Positions 4,556 to 61,950 of a stretch of 64,000 nucleotides of DNA are shown piece by piece. Source of the stretch: Octopus vulgaris (Eukaryota). The notes beneath the pieces were generated by a model. It had not been told where the DNA came from, did not search any database, and was given only the letters and a program-made list of their open reading frames with translations. Numbering within the stretch: the first letter of the stretch is position 1; every line of letters starts with the position of its first letter. Where the stretch lies: the NCBI GenBank assembly GCA_951406725.2, contig OX597830.1, positions 20,212,001 through 20,276,000 of the forward strand. The letters run 5' to 3'. Position numbers and translations under genes: made by a program.

Positions 4556-5075
4556 GCCAAAAAAAGGCATTTTTCGTCTGTTTGGTTTTTCTCATTTGTC
4601 CTCTTGTTTGTTTGATTTCCCGTATTGGGTTCCCTTTTTATTTCTCTTCTTGTATTTTTTTGTACATGTATTTTTATCTTGTATTTTATTGTGTAGTTTT
4701 ATTGTTACATACTGTTTGCGTTCTTACCCGTTTTACCCCGCTGCTTCGAATTTTATTTTAATTCTCTCGCAGGAAGGCCTAGTTAACGAGTGTCCTGTCT
4801 TGCCTTCGAAACACGCCTGAGTTAACTAGCGACAGCTGATGACGGTGGATTTTTCCTTGTGTAGCATGTCCTGTACTTGTTTTCTTGTTGTAAAAAATTT
4901 TTGGATTTTTCCTTGTGTTGCCTGTCCTGTACTTGTCGTTAAATTTTTGTTTTTCCCGTTTCTACGTCTTGTTGTGGCGTCCTGTACTTACGTATATTTA
5001 TTTATATATGCATGTATATATACATGTAGATGTAGGTACGTACATATATGTTTGTATGTATGCATATATTTTTAA
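4556..5075 (+). mobile_element. Non-autonomous dispersed repeat in (TA)n carrying a permuted hammerhead-like motif (copy 1)
   Basis: Homologous to 24897-25235 (-): shared ttttacccc.ctgc..., ttc.cgc.ggaagg, ccttcgaaac, ctga.ga, ttttcc and the tail atatatgcatgtatatatac.tgtaga.gta.gtacgtacatatatg. Confidence 0.7.
4779..4848 (+). ncRNA. Candidate non-circularly permuted hammerhead ribozyme, predicted cleavage after GUC at 4794
   Basis: Order: GTGT-C, CTGTC, ttgccttc, GAA-ACAC ... GACAG, CTGATGA, cggtgg. Stem III ACAC/GTGT, stem I CTGTC/GACAG, extra helix ctagttaac/gttaactag. Confidence 0.6.
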
Positions 5076-5079
5076 TTAT

Positions 5080-22410: not shown

Positions 22411-23336
22411 CCTATGACGGCTGTTCACTCGAGAGGGTGGAATGTTATTCGGGGTATATACGGATTGGGGGTAATTTACGCTTAAGGGAGAGAGACAGAG
22501 AAAAAGAGAGAGAGCGAGAGTGGTTGATATCAGGGCAAGAAAAGGAAAACCGGCGAAGGAGAAGATAGAGAGGAGAAAATGAGAAGGAGGGAGATATGAA
22601 AAAAGGAGAGGGAGATATCAAAAAGGAGGGAGACTGAGAGAGAGAAGGAAAGAGTGAGAGAGAAAGCAGAAAGGGAGACAGAGGAATAGTAAATGGGTAA
22701 ATATATGGCAATGCGGTAGGGGGGCGGGGGCGAAAATGAAAGTGAAAGTAGCTGTGGTGAGTGATGTGTGCAGGGCTTCGAGGGGTAAAGATAAATAGCT
22801 TAGGGTGTGCAGGGTGGGTTAATTTTAATGTAATTGTTAAATGGTGATCTATAGTGTGGCGGTGATGGTGGTGGTTGTGGTGGTGACGATGGTAATGGAT
22901 GGTGGCGATGGGTGGTAGTGGCTGGTTTATGGAGGCTAATGTCAAGAATTTGTTTTTAGAGATTGGTTATTATCATAATATTTGGAGGGTAGGGACACAA
23001 GTGGTAGTGGAGGTGAGCGTGGTGGTTGCGGTGGCTATGGTAGAGGTGGTGGCTGTGATGGTGGTAGTGGTACAGTTTGTGTTGTTGCTGTGTTGGTAGT
23101 GCTGTTTGCACTGGTGTTGTTGCTGTGGTTGTTGTTGTAGTTGATTCTGGTGGTGTTATTGCTGTTTTGGTTGTTGTAGGTGGTTGTAATGGTATCGTGG
23201 TCCTGATAGTCATAGTACTCATGATGGTGATGGCAAGAAAATAACAGTGCCGATGGTGGTACTGGAGTGGTGATGCACGTATTGGAGATAGTTGAAGGGA
23301 GGTTGTGTTGGTAGTAGTTGTGATGATGGTAGTAAT

Positions 23337-23830
23337 GATCATTGTGATGGTTACGTTGCTGTTGTTGTTAGTCGTGATGGTGATGACGGCGACGGCGTTG
23401 GTGGTGGTGATGGTGGTGTTAGTGGAAATGGTGGTAGCGATCATTGTGATGGTTGTGTTGCTGTTGTTGGTAGTGGTGATGGTGATGACGGTGGCGGCGG
23501 CGGTGGTGGTGGTGGTGGTGATGGAAATGGTGGTAGCGATCATTGTGATGGTTGTGTTGCTGTTGTTGGTAGTGGTGATGGTGATGACGGTGGCGGCGGC
23601 GGCGGTGGTGGTGGTGATGGAAATGGTGGTAGGGATCATTGTGATGTTTGCGTTGTTGTTGTTGGTAGTGGTGATGGTGATGATGGTGGCGGCGGCGGTG
23701 GTGGTGGTGGTGGTGATGGAAATGGTGGTAGGGATCATTGTGATGTTTGCGTTGTTGTTGTTGGTAGTGGTGATGGTGATAACGGCGGTGGCAGTGGTGG
23801 TGGTGGTGGTGGTGGTGGTGGTGATGGTGC
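23337..23830. repeat. ~96-102-bp minisatellite x5 built from GGT/GAT/GTT triplets
   Basis: gatcattgtgat recurs at 23337, 23439, 23538, 23634 and 23733. Confidence 0.85.
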
Positions 23831-24341: not shown

Positions 24342-24409
24342 ATGTACTGAGTGTCACTTTTTCGATTGCCCACTCATTTGTGAATGTGTATATACACACA
24401 CACACACAC

Positions 24410-24441
<32 letters not shown>

Positions 24442-24452
24442 ATATATGTATA

Positions 24453-24508
<56 letters not shown>

Positions 24509-24562
24509 GAGGTATGTACGTACATATATGTATGTATATATGCATATGTTTTATTTAATTAC

Positions 24563-24616
<54 letters not shown>

Positions 24617-24690
24617 ATGCATATATGTACTGAGTGTCACTTTTTCGATTGCCCACTCATTTGTGAATGTGTATATACACACACACACAC

Positions 24691-24722
<32 letters not shown>

Positions 24723-24725
24723 ATA

Positions 24726-24803
<78 letters not shown>

Positions 24804-24855
24804 GAGGTAGGTACGTACATATATGTATGTATATATGCATATGTTTTATTTATTT
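24342..24855. repeat. Tandem duplication (~283-bp period)
   Basis: atgtactgagtgtcactttttcgattgcccactcatttgtgaatgtg occurs at ~24342 and ~24625, each followed by the same tacatgtagaggta.gtacgtac tail. Confidence 0.9.
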
Positions 24856-24896
24856 ATTAATTTATTTTATCTATCTATCTATATATATATATATAT

Positions 24897-25232
24897 AAAA
24901 CATATGCATATATACATACATATATGTACGTACATACCTCTACACGTATATATACATGCATATATGGGTACAGGACACCCCAAAAAACGTCGAACACAAT
25001 GAGAAACGAAAACATAAACACAAAACCAAGGAAATGGACATGTTCTTAAAACAACGAAAAAATAGAGTACAGGATATACAAAAAAAGGAAAATTCCCCTT
25101 CTTCAGTCGCCTTAATTTCATCTACTCCACGTTTCGAAGGTCAAGGCGATACATGACTTCGATGAAATTTTCCTTCCCGCGAAAATCAAATTAAATAAAA
25201 TTTGAGATTTTTTTGCAGAGGGGTAAAAATGG

Positions 25233-25235
<3 letters not shown>
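24897..25235 (-). mobile_element. Non-autonomous dispersed repeat carrying a permuted hammerhead-like motif (copy 2)
   Basis: Homologous to 4720-5075. Its tail is also present in inverted orientation at ~24495-24555 and ~24790-24850. Confidence 0.7.
25095..25169 (-). ncRNA. Candidate non-circularly permuted hammerhead ribozyme, predicted cleavage after GUA (A = position 25150)
   Basis: Minus strand: aatttcatc gaagt CATGT-A TCGCCTT ga ccttc GAA-ACGTG gagta gatgaaatt AAGGCGA CTGAAGA agggg. Stem I 7 bp, stem III 5 bp, extra helix 9 bp. Confidence 0.6.
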
Positions 25236-25275
<40 letters not shown>

Positions 25276-25349: not shown

Positions 25350-25402
<53 letters not shown>

Positions 25403-25421
25403 ATTTATTTTTCTCTTATCC

Positions 25422-25457
25422 CTTTCTGTTAAAGAGTGTAGGCTCGAAACGTAAAAG
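25422..25457 (+). ncRNA. Degenerate minimal hammerhead-like motif in a PLE-like repeat (25400-25560)
   Basis: CTTT-CTGTTAA-a-GAGT-gtag-GCTC-GAAA-CG-TA-AAAG; paralogous to 50327-50362. Confidence 0.35.
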
Positions 25458-25555
25458 ACTTTTTCATTTTCCGGATCGTCAAACTAATACACTTGCTTGT
25501 TGTTCATACACCTGTCTTTGTCTTTTGGTTTCTATAAATTTCAACTATAAATTTC

Positions 25556-25620
<65 letters not shown>

Positions 25621-25621
<1 letters not shown>

Positions 25622-25807
25622 ATATGTTACATTACTCAATAGTCAAGATAGAACTCTGAGTTTCAGATGCCGAAGTGGAAATCCCCAACACCATCTCTAT
25701 TGAGTAATGTAACATATTATTTTATATTATATTATTTTATAGATAAATTTCTTCTATTTACATAATATTGAGGTCTCTTTCTTTCTTTTGTTATCTTACC
25801 GTTTTTA

Positions 25808-25812
<5 letters not shown>
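25621..25812. mobile_element. PLE-like terminal repeat with a partial inverted duplication
   Basis: 22-bp arms aatatgttacattactcaatag / ctattgagtaatgtaacatatt. Homologous to 46995-47165. Confidence 0.55.
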
Positions 25813-37927: not shown

Positions 37928-38690
37928 ATCTTTTTACTGCCCACAAGGGGTTATACACAGAGGGGACAAACAAGGACAGACAAACGGATTAAGTCAATTA
38001 TATCGACCGCAGTGCGTAACTGGTACTTATTTAATCGACCCTGAAAGGATGAAAGGTGAAGTCGACCTCGGCGGAATTTGAACTCAGAACGTAGTGGCAG
38101 ACGAAATACCTGTTTCTTTACTACCCACAAGGGACTAAACACAGGGGGGACAAACGAGGACAGACAAACGGATTAAGTCGATTACATCGACCCCAGTGCG
38201 TAACTGGTACTTAATTTATCGATCCCGAAAGGATGAAAGGCAAAGTCAACCTCGGCGTAATTTGAACTCACAACGTAACGGCAGACAAAAAACCTATTTC
38301 TTTACTACCCACAAGGGGCTAAACACAGAGAGGGCAGACAAGGACTGACAAACGGATTAAGTCGATTACATCGACCCCAGTGCGTAACTGGTACTTAATT
38401 TATCGACCCCGAAAGGATGAAAGGCAAAGTCAACCTCGGCGTAATTTGAACTCACAACGTAACGGCAGATGAAATACCTATTTCTTTACTACCCACAAGG
38501 GGCTAAACATAGAGAGGACAAACAAGAACAGACAAACGGATGAAGTCGATTAAGGTACTTATTTAATCGACCCCGAAAGGATGAAAGGCAAAGTAGACCT
38601 CGGCGGAATTTGAACTGAGAACGTAAAGACGGACGAAATACCGCTAAGCATTTCGTCCGGCGTGCTAACGATTCTGCCAGCTCGCCGCCT
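37928..38690 (-). repeat. Head-to-tail tetramer of SINE family B (one head plus four ~183-bp bodies)
   Basis: Units start at ~37928, ~38111, ~38295 and ~38480. Junctions read ...aaataggtatttc.tctgccgttacg on the minus strand. Another degraded copy lies at 37735-37925. Confidence 0.88.
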
Positions 38691-39531: not shown

Positions 39532-40030
39532 AATGGTCACAGCTGGAACGTCATTCGGTCATAAGTCTATTATATCCACTATTTTTGTGTATAAGGAAGA
39601 CACAAGAAAGTAACATAAAATGCTAGAAATAACAGCGAAAATATCAAATCAAGACCTATCATCGGAATGGTCACTGCTGGAACGTCATTTGATCCTAAGT
39701 CTATTTATCCACCATTTTGAATATTAGGGAGACACAAGAAAGTAACCTAAAATGCTAGAAATAACAGTGAAAATATCAAATCAAGACCTATCGTCGGAAT
39801 GGTCACAGTTGGAACGTCATTCGGTCATAAGTCTATTCACCTACCATTTTGAATATAAGGGAGACACAAGAAGGTAACCTAAAATGCTAGAAATAACAGC
39901 GAAAAGATCAAATCAAAATCTATCGTCGGAATGGTTAAAACTACAATAGCATTCGATCGTTAAGTCTGTTCATTTACCATTTTCAGTGTAAGAGGACCGC
40001 TATATGTCTGATCTGCTAGAAATAACAGCG
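39532..40030. repeat. ~132-bp tandem repeat x3.7
   Basis: aatggtcac.g.tggaacgtcatt at ~39532, ~39666, ~39798 and (diverged) ~39930. Each unit contains tgctagaaataacag. Confidence 0.9.
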
Positions 40031-46946: not shown

Positions 46947-46997
<51 letters not shown>

Positions 46998-47096
46998 ATA
47001 GTAATGGTAAGACAACAAAAGAATGAAAGAGACCTCGATATATAAATAGAGGAATTTATCTGTAAATATAATATGTGATAATTATTCGGTAGCCAT

Positions 47097-47157
47097 GATA
47101 GAAATCCGAGTTTCGGATGTCGGGGCGGAAACCTGCACCGGCATCTCTTCAGTTATC
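47097..47157 (-). ncRNA. Type I hammerhead-like motif in a PLE-like repeat (46995-47165)
   Basis: GATAa-CTGAAGA-GATGcCGG...CCGaCATC-c-GAAA-ctcggattt-cTATC. The paralog at 25646-25668 reads GAAACTCAGAGTT-CTATC. Confidence 0.45.
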
Positions 47158-47676: not shown

Positions 47677-47732
47677 GTCTCTGATGACGGAATATCCCAA
47701 ACTCTGGGGTTTCCCAGAAACAGCTGTAAGAC
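47677..47732 (+). ncRNA. Type I hammerhead with a canonical core, cleavage after GUA at 47728
   Basis: GTCT-CTGATGA-[imperfect stem II]-GAAA-C-AGCT-G-TA-AGAC; palindromic loop III. Confidence 0.7.
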
Positions 47733-50290: not shown

Positions 50291-50326
50291 TTTTTCTATT
50301 TTCTCTCCCTGTTTATTTCTGTGTTC

Positions 50327-50362
50327 CTTTCTGTCGAAGAGCATAGGCTCGAAACGTAAAAG
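50327..50362 (+). ncRNA. Minimal hammerhead-like motif (U6 variant) in a PLE-like repeat (50285-50447)
   Basis: CTTT-CTGTCGA-a-GAGC-atag-GCTC-GAAA-CG-TA-AAAG. Confidence 0.4.
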
Positions 50363-50445
50363 ACTTCCTCACTTCCCGAGCGTTAAACTAATCCGTCTGT
50401 TTGTTGTTTACACACCCGTCTTCTTTTTTTTTTGTAAATTCTCAC

Positions 50446-50476
<31 letters not shown>

Positions 50477-61614: not shown

Positions 61615-61950
61615 TGCCTATACTTATCGTAAAGTCAATACCACCATGACCGATATCCAAACTACAGTGGAGAAGGCTAGCCACTGGATTTGGTTAAAAA
61701 GAGACGATGAGCGATGGCTAGAAGAATATTGAGCTTTATTTGATAACCAGTTGATCTAGTAAGCAGGGTCTCATATCAGTGAGGGGGCGGTGCGCATTGA
61801 TGCTGTCGAAAGGTAGGCCCCGAAACGGCGTGCGTTCTCTCCTGATGACCCCATACACTTGCTGGCTTCCGGTATGCGGAGTTCTTGACTGGTAGCACTT
61901 GCATGTGCTAGTTGTTTGCAAGACATATTTCCGACGCATTCATCATTAGC
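61615..61950 (+). mobile_element. 3' end of a HERO-like RLE non-LTR retrotransposon (ORF C-terminus plus 3' UTR)
   Basis: DIQTTVEKASHWIWLKRDDERWLEEY* resembles the recalled HERO C-terminal E.AS.W.W.KR...W motif. Confidence 0.55.
61800..61856 (+). ncRNA. Candidate non-circularly permuted hammerhead in a LINE 3' UTR, predicted cleavage after GUC at 61807
   Basis: ATGCTGT-C GAaAG gtagg cccc GAA-ACGGCGT gcgtt CTcTC CTGATGA cc ccatac. Stem III 7 bp, stem I 4 of 5 bp. Confidence 0.55.

Follow-up and report, generated by a model that had tools for sequence, protein, structure and literature searches.

The locus at 24897-25235 of a 64,000-nucleotide stretch of Octopus vulgaris DNA (hereinafter designated the window; positions count from its first letter) raises two questions: how the strands of its hammerhead-like motif are wired together, and what kind of element carries it. 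The original prediction described a permuted hammerhead with a possible conformational switch in a retrozyme-like, non-autonomous family. Our analysis retains the hammerhead and revises both its wiring and its carrier. The letters of the motif, its pairing potential and covariation, the copy number and the common 3′ end of the family are direct observations on the DNA. The locus is likely the 3′ end of a Naiad-type retroelement that targets (TA)n and has reached high copy; it would be a 5′-truncated copy or a non-autonomous partner, in either case equipped with a split-core hammerhead.

The repeat family and its setting

Two copies of the family and a local duplication next to copy 2 lie in the window:

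24897..25235, minus strand: copy 2 of the repeat family, ~340 bp, without an ORF, between (TA)n tracts
25235..25272: (TA)n tract adjoining copy 2 on its 5′ side
24897..24965, minus strand: 3′ tail common to the family, 91% identical to the tail of copy 1; loose contig ends continue into it
4556..5078, plus strand: copy 1, ~520 bp; 3′ end as in copy 2, 5′ end ~165 bp longer
4736-4847, plus strand: ribozyme motif of copy 1, 30/32 modelled pairs
24343..24913, plus strand: local tandem duplication of two ~285-bp units, 24343-24626 and 24627-24913

Copies 1 and 2 align from 25235 to the 3′ tail (best BLAST piece, E 1e-4), confirming the claimed homology of the flanks, and each sits between (TA)n tracts, as had also been noted, in a window where microsatellites are very abundant. 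The predicted lack of an ORF holds: the longest ATG-initiated frame is 75 codons in copy 2 and 78 codons in copy 1, a non-coding character that both copies share with non-LTR retrozymes. Pieces of 520, 340 and ~70 bp end alike at the 3′ side, with few 5′ ends sampled. A search for tandem copies, proposed with the original prediction, returned single copies only, 20 kb apart, within the window. In copy 1, a ~30-nt subunit 3′ of the ribozyme (4849-4990) is repeated two to three times, and copy 2 holds fewer intact units.

Sequencing runs containing the 24966-25232 stretch carry four organism labels and come from 10 studies; contigs were collected at 80% likeness. In four runs, 3235, 2542, 1298 and 644 contigs fall on this stretch, and the family is therefore high-copy. 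Loose contig ends in all four runs carry the same 3′ tail. Because the family is high-copy, lies in (TA)n and has a common 3′ end with differing 5′ ends, its sequence is probably that of a retroelement tail of the Naiad type. The label 'non-autonomous' is unproven, as a longer element with truncated copies would account just as well for differing 5′ and common 3′ ends. No Naiad ORF, with its N-terminal GIY-YIG endonuclease and reverse transcriptase, occurs in the window, and none adjoins copy 1 or copy 2. Of the element first described, the (TA)n-dwelling, ORF-less repeat family with a connection to Penelope-like elements (PLEs) stands, while the retrozyme likeness falls away, with no type I ribozyme in the copies and no tandem units in the window.

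The tail does occur in both orientations, at 24897-24964 (minus), 24485-24561 (plus) and 24780-24847 (plus). Each ~285-bp unit comprises one of the opposite-strand tails together with the first 17 bases of the copy 2 tail; since both plus-strand tails derive from one tandem duplication, they represent a single opposite-strand piece, which points at the element so that the two 3′ ends oppose each other over TA repeats. Its interpretation as the partial inverted ends of PLEs does not hold: the inversion here is tail to tail at the 3′ end, while the inverted copy of PLEs is described at the 5′ end in the text of PMC8557442. It would be simpler to assume that a further insertion, heavily truncated, entered this palindromic tract, or that the DNA folded back locally, and an assembly fault is possible.

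Wiring of the hammerhead-type core

The motif of copy 2 spans 25223-25095 on the minus strand. Its parts, in the order of the RNA, and a third copy of the wiring are as follows:

25219..25223, minus strand: helix IV 5′ strand, pairs with 25099-25095 (5/5); junction pair U-A, versus G-C in copy 1
25177..25218, minus strand: hairpin V, between helix IV and G10.1; closing pairs 4/4, pair probabilities 0.69-0.97
25172..25176, minus strand: upstream stem II strand, previously called a competitor; G10.1 is 25176; 5/5 Watson-Crick pairs with 25140-25136
25161..25168, minus strand: helix b 5′ strand, pairs with 25122-25115 (8/8); 6 changed on both sides relative to copy 1
25150..25155, minus strand: stem III strand and GUA site; predicted cut between 25150 and 25149
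25143..25149, minus strand: stem I strand 3′ of the cut site, pairs with 25113-25107 (7/7)
25128..25140, minus strand: block G, with the stem II 3′ strand, GAAA and a stem III strand
25115..25122, minus strand: helix b 3′ strand
25100..25113, minus strand: stem I partner strand and CUGAAGA core; C3 is 25106 and A9 is 25100
25095..25099, minus strand: helix IV 3′ strand, previously assigned to stem II; directly 3′ of A9
25083..25094, minus strand: pyrimidine tract with the potential to mask the upstream stem II strand, as a possible off-state
61765..61853, plus strand: copy 3, in a different repeat family; same wiring, unrelated letters, 27/30 pairs

The A-C-B layout that had been proposed is borne out: the GUA site (25152-25150), GAAA (25135-25132) and CUGAAGA (25106-25100) follow one another on the minus strand in the order claimed, and site-GAAA-CUGAAGA is the non-circular block order of type SGC. 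The core letters of the hammerhead class (CUGANGA, GAAA and an NUH site) are all there in copy 2, and helices I, II and III surround the core with covariation, helix II being closed by G10.1-C11.1 through the upstream strand. The linker between stem I and stem II′ is short, similar to that of type SGC, and the distance from the cut to G12 is 13-14 nt in the three copies. A scan for the six permutations called both copy 2 and copy 1 (4794/4808/4836, plus strand) type SGC, and 100 locally shuffled windows yielded 0.02 loose SGC matches per window and no strong ones; the same scan also gave three weaker GCS readings of the copy 1 and copy 2 cores.

Rfam returned no hammerhead for the local copy 2 sequence, with three unrelated weak matches (E 0.5-8.6), and no match for copy 3; for the whole window, it gave microsatellite-driven microRNA matches only, among the 150 of 454 matches listed. 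Nested Rfam models would be unable to express a split-core topology. The folding z-scores of the 131-nt regions are just -1.15 and -1.05, and nested folding of copy 2 misses stems II, III and b, which is expected for a pseudoknot yet lends no support. The block order and the intact modelled pairs uphold the claim of a pseudoknotted, non-circularly permuted hammerhead-type motif.

These pairs are intact at 32/32 in copy 2, beside 30/32 in copy 1 and 27/30 in copy 3, and the three pairwise comparisons between copies 1-3 give 10, 15 and 19 changes on both sides. Helix b extends stem III across an internal loop, and hairpin V fills the space between the helix IV 5′ strand and G10.1 with no spare bases. 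The strands would thereby run in the order helix IV, hairpin V, stem II with G10.1, helix b, then stem III, the cut site and stem I, and, after the short linker, stem II′ with GAAA and stem III, helix b′, stem I′ with CUGANGA, and helix IV′. This arrangement is likely a non-circular SGC permutation with its opening at the A9-G10.1 step, where helix IV and hairpin V are docked.

A descriptor of the wiring, written after the three copies had been seen, finds exactly three sites in the window, none in 300 shuffled windows and none in 29 pattern-matched loci picked for core words at the right spacing. A looser version finds none in 106 loci and misses copy 3, which has one stem I mismatch. These loci come from viral, metagenome and prokaryote pattern scans (2, 0, 27, 68 and 9 loci); stems I and III are present in 0/106, and they therefore serve as negative controls only. 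Two candidate features were set aside: a kink-turn at the loop between stem III and helix b, which by eye fits copy 1 roughly and copy 2 not at all, and a splint formed by the upstream strand and the downstream pyrimidine tract, abandoned after helix IV and hairpin V had been recognised.

Family-wide variation was counted from the contigs at a frequency of at least 5%, among the variants listed. Such variants fall on 0/15 core positions versus 35/258 positions in 24966-25223, a difference that alone is not significant, and position 17 varies from A to C only among those listed. The outer pair of helix b changes from A-U to G-C, with frequencies on its two sides of 72/73% (X1), 51/83% (X5), 85/89% (X8) and 100/97% (X11), which match in three of the four runs and disagree in X5; the contigs do not link paired changes. 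One stem III pair is changed on both sides, and three changes yield G-U pairs. Variants at 25147 (0-12%) and 25112 (6-72%) break stem I pairs unless partner changes went unseen, and the ninth b pair is not conserved in the family. Depth dips at 25128-25163, and no contig covers the whole stretch.

The six-permutation scheme treats CUGAnGA and its stem II strand (block C) as unbreakable, in the text of PMC10085705. The motif resembles type SGC as described there in the order site-GAAA-CUGAnGA, the ~3-nt joint between stem I and stem II′, the mutually crossing helices and the full core. In contrast to that type, in which CUGAnGA runs into the stem II strand and an 'I' helix joins stems I and II, the stem II strand here lies upstream, helices IV and V stand between A9 and G10.1, and the setting is an animal genomic repeat; type SGC (HRIMA-1) is reported in the same text from metatranscriptomes only, with none in genomes of known organisms. 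The copies lack an intact block C, in which CUGAnGA is followed by its own stem II strand, and they lack the 'I' helix, the strand before stem I′ pairing upstream as helix b.

The PK hammerhead, as described in PMC11300833, likewise has an extra helix and a pseudoknot around helix II with an unchanged catalytic core. Its A9, G10.1 and C11.1 lie on one continuous strand in a circularly normal order, whereas A9 and G10.1 are split here, and its helix II loop pairs with an upstream hairpin loop, a pairing not found in the present copies. One extra base at the A9-G10.1 step is tolerated in a viroid hammerhead (PMC3705267): the CChMVd plus hammerhead, with its extra A10, has the insertion at the same step, of one base, compared with two helices and open ends here. 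In the literature searched (texts without figures), we found no description of the split-core wiring or of non-circular hammerheads in retroelements, and the alignments in the Eckert supplement could hold related forms; as far as these texts reach, the topology is undescribed. If correct, it would constitute a seventh hammerhead wiring outside the six-permutation scheme, breaking the premise that CUGAnGA and the stem II strand are inseparable, and would move non-circular permutations from anonymous metatranscriptomes to animal genomes at high copy. The open helix at A9 would also be a new handle for ribozyme engineering.

Naiad relatives and the carrier

Naiads insert in (TA)n, are often 5′-truncated and, according to the text of PMC8557442, lack canonical hammerheads, yet a 'half core' occurs in some, GAAA lying on either side of it. 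In cephalopods, (TA)n is the preferred target of Naiads, and Naiad_Ovul and Naiad_Esco are flagged 'HHR_half_core' in that source with no pLTR listed. The window family shows (TA)n insertion and 5′ truncation with a common 3′ end as Naiads do, a T-rich sense 3′ region, and a wiring seen in 10-11 Naiad ends. It differs from Naiads as published in that source, where only 'cores' and 'half cores' are named, and in having no ORF, no pLTR and no inverted truncated copy at the 5′ end, the inverted piece lying at the 3′ end of the window copy.

For this comparison, the last ~420-600 nt of 54 published consensus sequences (PMC8557442 File S5) were viewed by eye. Split-core wiring is present in 10/54 Naiad ends, in different letters, and imperfectly in one more (Esco). 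The carriers are Bfor (ctenophore), Chem-3, Amil, Aacu, Anas and Movir-2 (cnidarians), Plae (acanthocephalan), EuTe (crustacean), and Obim and Ovul (octopus), and they represent seven independent letter sets. Every carrier has an upstream strand of 4-6 bases, starting with G, that pairs with the strand before GAAA; in every one, the strand after CUGAnGA forms helix IV rather than stem II, and hairpin V and helix b are there. The weakest pairings by eye are stem I of Naiad_Bfor (just 2 bp), Aacu with two mismatches, and the imperfect stem II of Esco. No split-core wiring was seen in the other 43/54 ends within the stretch viewed, beyond which longer Naiad 3′ regions could hide it; they comprise six CSG forms, two spider S-G-C forms, four Darwinula forms and 31 with none. 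By eye, the letters of the window family differ from those of the Naiad_Obim, Ovul and Esco ends while the wiring is the same, and the window family is therefore probably another family.

On balance we lean towards a broader proposal, in which a putatively active four-block hammerhead, with G10.1 on a separate strand and two helices occupying the A9-G10.1 step, would be the ancient 3′ ribozyme of Naiads from ctenophores to cephalopods. Naiads would then be the genomic home of non-circular permutations (the split form, CSG in nematodes and SGC-like forms in spiders), and the split form would also have moved to a restriction-like-endonuclease non-LTR element. Were this so, it would answer the puzzle of half cores in elements said to 'lack canonical hammerheads', and it would weaken the argument, drawn from the absence of hammerheads in Naiads, that hammerheads merely ride on PLEs.

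Several Naiad ends hold other structures. Those of the nematode elements Naiad-1/2/3_Nbra, Hcon, Hpol and Asuum have intact type-CSG hammerheads with a helix between stems I and II. In the arthropod elements Naiad_Smim, Naiad_Ptep and Naiad-1..4_Dst, GAAA precedes CUGAnGA, and a long helix closes around the CUGAnGA block. Another conserved structured motif, without CUGAnGA, recurs in bivalve, hemichordate, Chem-1/2 and Cmel ends, and the Naiad-1_Movir and Naiad-4_Chem ends look twister-like. The ends viewed suggest that the Naiad 3′ slot always holds some ribozyme. The type-CSG examples of Eckert came from soil DNA (PMC10085705) and, speculatively, may be nematode Naiads.

Copy 3 has a neighbour that bears on the question of the carrier:

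61616..61732, plus strand: what survives of the C-terminal end of a non-LTR reverse-transcriptase ORF, whose stop codon precedes copy 3 by ~30 nt

The remnant is 64% identical over 36 aa to the reverse-transcriptase protein P0001 and matches the C-terminus of P0003, a 1089-aa protein with PF00078 that presumably belongs to a restriction-like-endonuclease element of the HERO kind. Pfam gave no match in the three frames upstream of copy 3, and no locus related to P0002 was found in viral or prokaryote contigs. The spacing of ~30 nt between this P0003-like stop codon and copy 3 favours a reading in which the same ribozyme has another carrier, with a HERO-like restriction-like-endonuclease non-LTR retrotransposon, rather than a Naiad, mobilising what would be a short element or a 3′ end, and the unlikeness in letters between copies 1-2 and the published octopus Naiad ends points the same way. 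We judge this unlikely: 36 residues of the ORF survive, copy 3 may be a later insertion, and the wiring is otherwise found in Naiads, which target (TA)n in cephalopods.

Predicted cleavage and the choice of stem II

As the 3′ end of a Naiad-type element, the RNA would form a hammerhead-like core with catalysis by G12 and G8. C3-A9, G12-A14 and three helices make up the established hammerhead structure (PMC11300833), on which basis the pairs A9-G12 and G10.1-C11.1 would form irrespective of a bond joining A9 to G10.1. Helices IV and V may stack and hold A9 beside G10.1, while helix b would serve as a strut linking stems III and I. The RNA is predicted to cut after 25150 as a monomer, whereas the hammerheads of other animal PLEs are minimal and dimeric (PMC4209133), and its likely job would be to trim transcripts that read through or run in tandem, a role proposed for hammerheads in other PLEs. 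Reverse transcription would start at a fixed 3′ point and stop at varied 5′ points. Genomic copies span the cut site, and insertion must therefore use uncut or re-ligated RNA.

The spanning of the cut site favours a real fold that does not cut, in which a 3′ structure descended from a hammerhead would be retained as a signal for the reverse transcriptase to bind or prime. Weak hammerheads are common in PLEs, and in a Poseidon PLE hammerhead cleavage is dispensable for insertion in vitro, with reverse transcription beginning internally (PMC11167929); the 2-bp stem I of Naiad_Bfor and the broken A9-G10.1 step, for which the literature texts gave no tested precedent, also speak for this reading. 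Against it, the lineages retain all catalytic core letters and an NUH site (H = A, C or U) despite having entirely different helix letters, and we hold a non-cutting fold to be as improbable as a HERO-like carrier.

Less probable again is an ordinary type-SGC hammerhead, with stem II formed by the strand after CUGAAGA, the upstream GGAAGG as a switch and propagation as a circular-RNA retrozyme. Type SGC ribozymes do cleave in vitro (PMC10085705), and this stem II has 4/5 pairs in copies 1 and 2, needing one skipped base and G-U pairs; in copy 3 it has 0-1/5, and by eye none in the Naiad relatives, where the strand is helix IV. Counted as Watson-Crick pairs in the three window copies, the upstream strand makes 5, 5 and 5 of 5, versus 3, 2 and 0 of 5 for the strand after CUGANGA, and the predicted duplexes in copy 2 are -4.6 versus -3.1 kcal/mol. 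In copies 1 and 2, every base of upstream GAAGG (25176-25172) has its complement in CCUUC (25140-25136), and the first G of this strand is the one opposite C11.1. Stem II is the same in copies 1 and 2 and varies relative to copy 3; in the Naiad relatives the upstream pairing persists, by eye, in other letters. The original prediction was thus correct that an upstream GGAAGG is conserved and can pair with CCTTC; the role of competitor given to this strand falls, since it is most likely the true stem II, and the strand after CUGAAGA loses that assignment.

The conformational switch finds no covariation in its favour. A trace of it remains in reversed form: 25094-25083 could bind the upstream stem II strand, with a modelled duplex of -10.9 kcal/mol in copy 2 and -6.0 kcal/mol in copy 1 that appears in the nested minimum-energy fold, and this alternative pairing is a point for the ordinary hammerhead with a switch. 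As for the retrozyme part of that reading, the copies resemble non-LTR retrozymes (PMC7229834; 10.64898/2026.07.22.740005) in being short, non-coding, hammerhead-bearing and probably PLE-mobilised. Retrozymes as described in these texts have type I ribozymes in tandem monomers and circular RNA, whereas here the ribozyme is permuted and the copies are single, dispersed and of unequal length; tandem units are absent from the window, and no circle-suggesting joint occurs among the eight listed.

Chance resemblance in microsatellite-rich DNA, which the absence of a hammerhead match in Rfam and the shallow z-scores would allow, is very improbable, being contradicted by the empty shuffled windows, the many both-side changes and the recurrence of the wiring in Naiads.

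The window holds further repeats. Two minimal type I hammerhead-like motifs with, by eye, one extra base after CUGANGA lie at 47677-47732 (plus) and 53936-53885 (minus), as expected at the ends of canonical PLE families; the six-permutation scan missed both. Another (TA)n-flanked repeat family occurs at 25616-25810 and 46961-47148, the former copy having inverted arms (25616-25642 versus ~25697-25723) as in the 5′ inversion of PLEs. A short repeat between (TC)n and (TA)n has two copies, 75% identical, at 25394-25552 and 50302-50452. Tandem arrays with units of 184 bp and 132 bp are found at 37933-38552 and 39532-39983, the 184-bp array resembling a cephalopod SINE tail, and at 23326-23818 a 99-bp G/T-rich unit made of trinucleotide runs is repeated five times.
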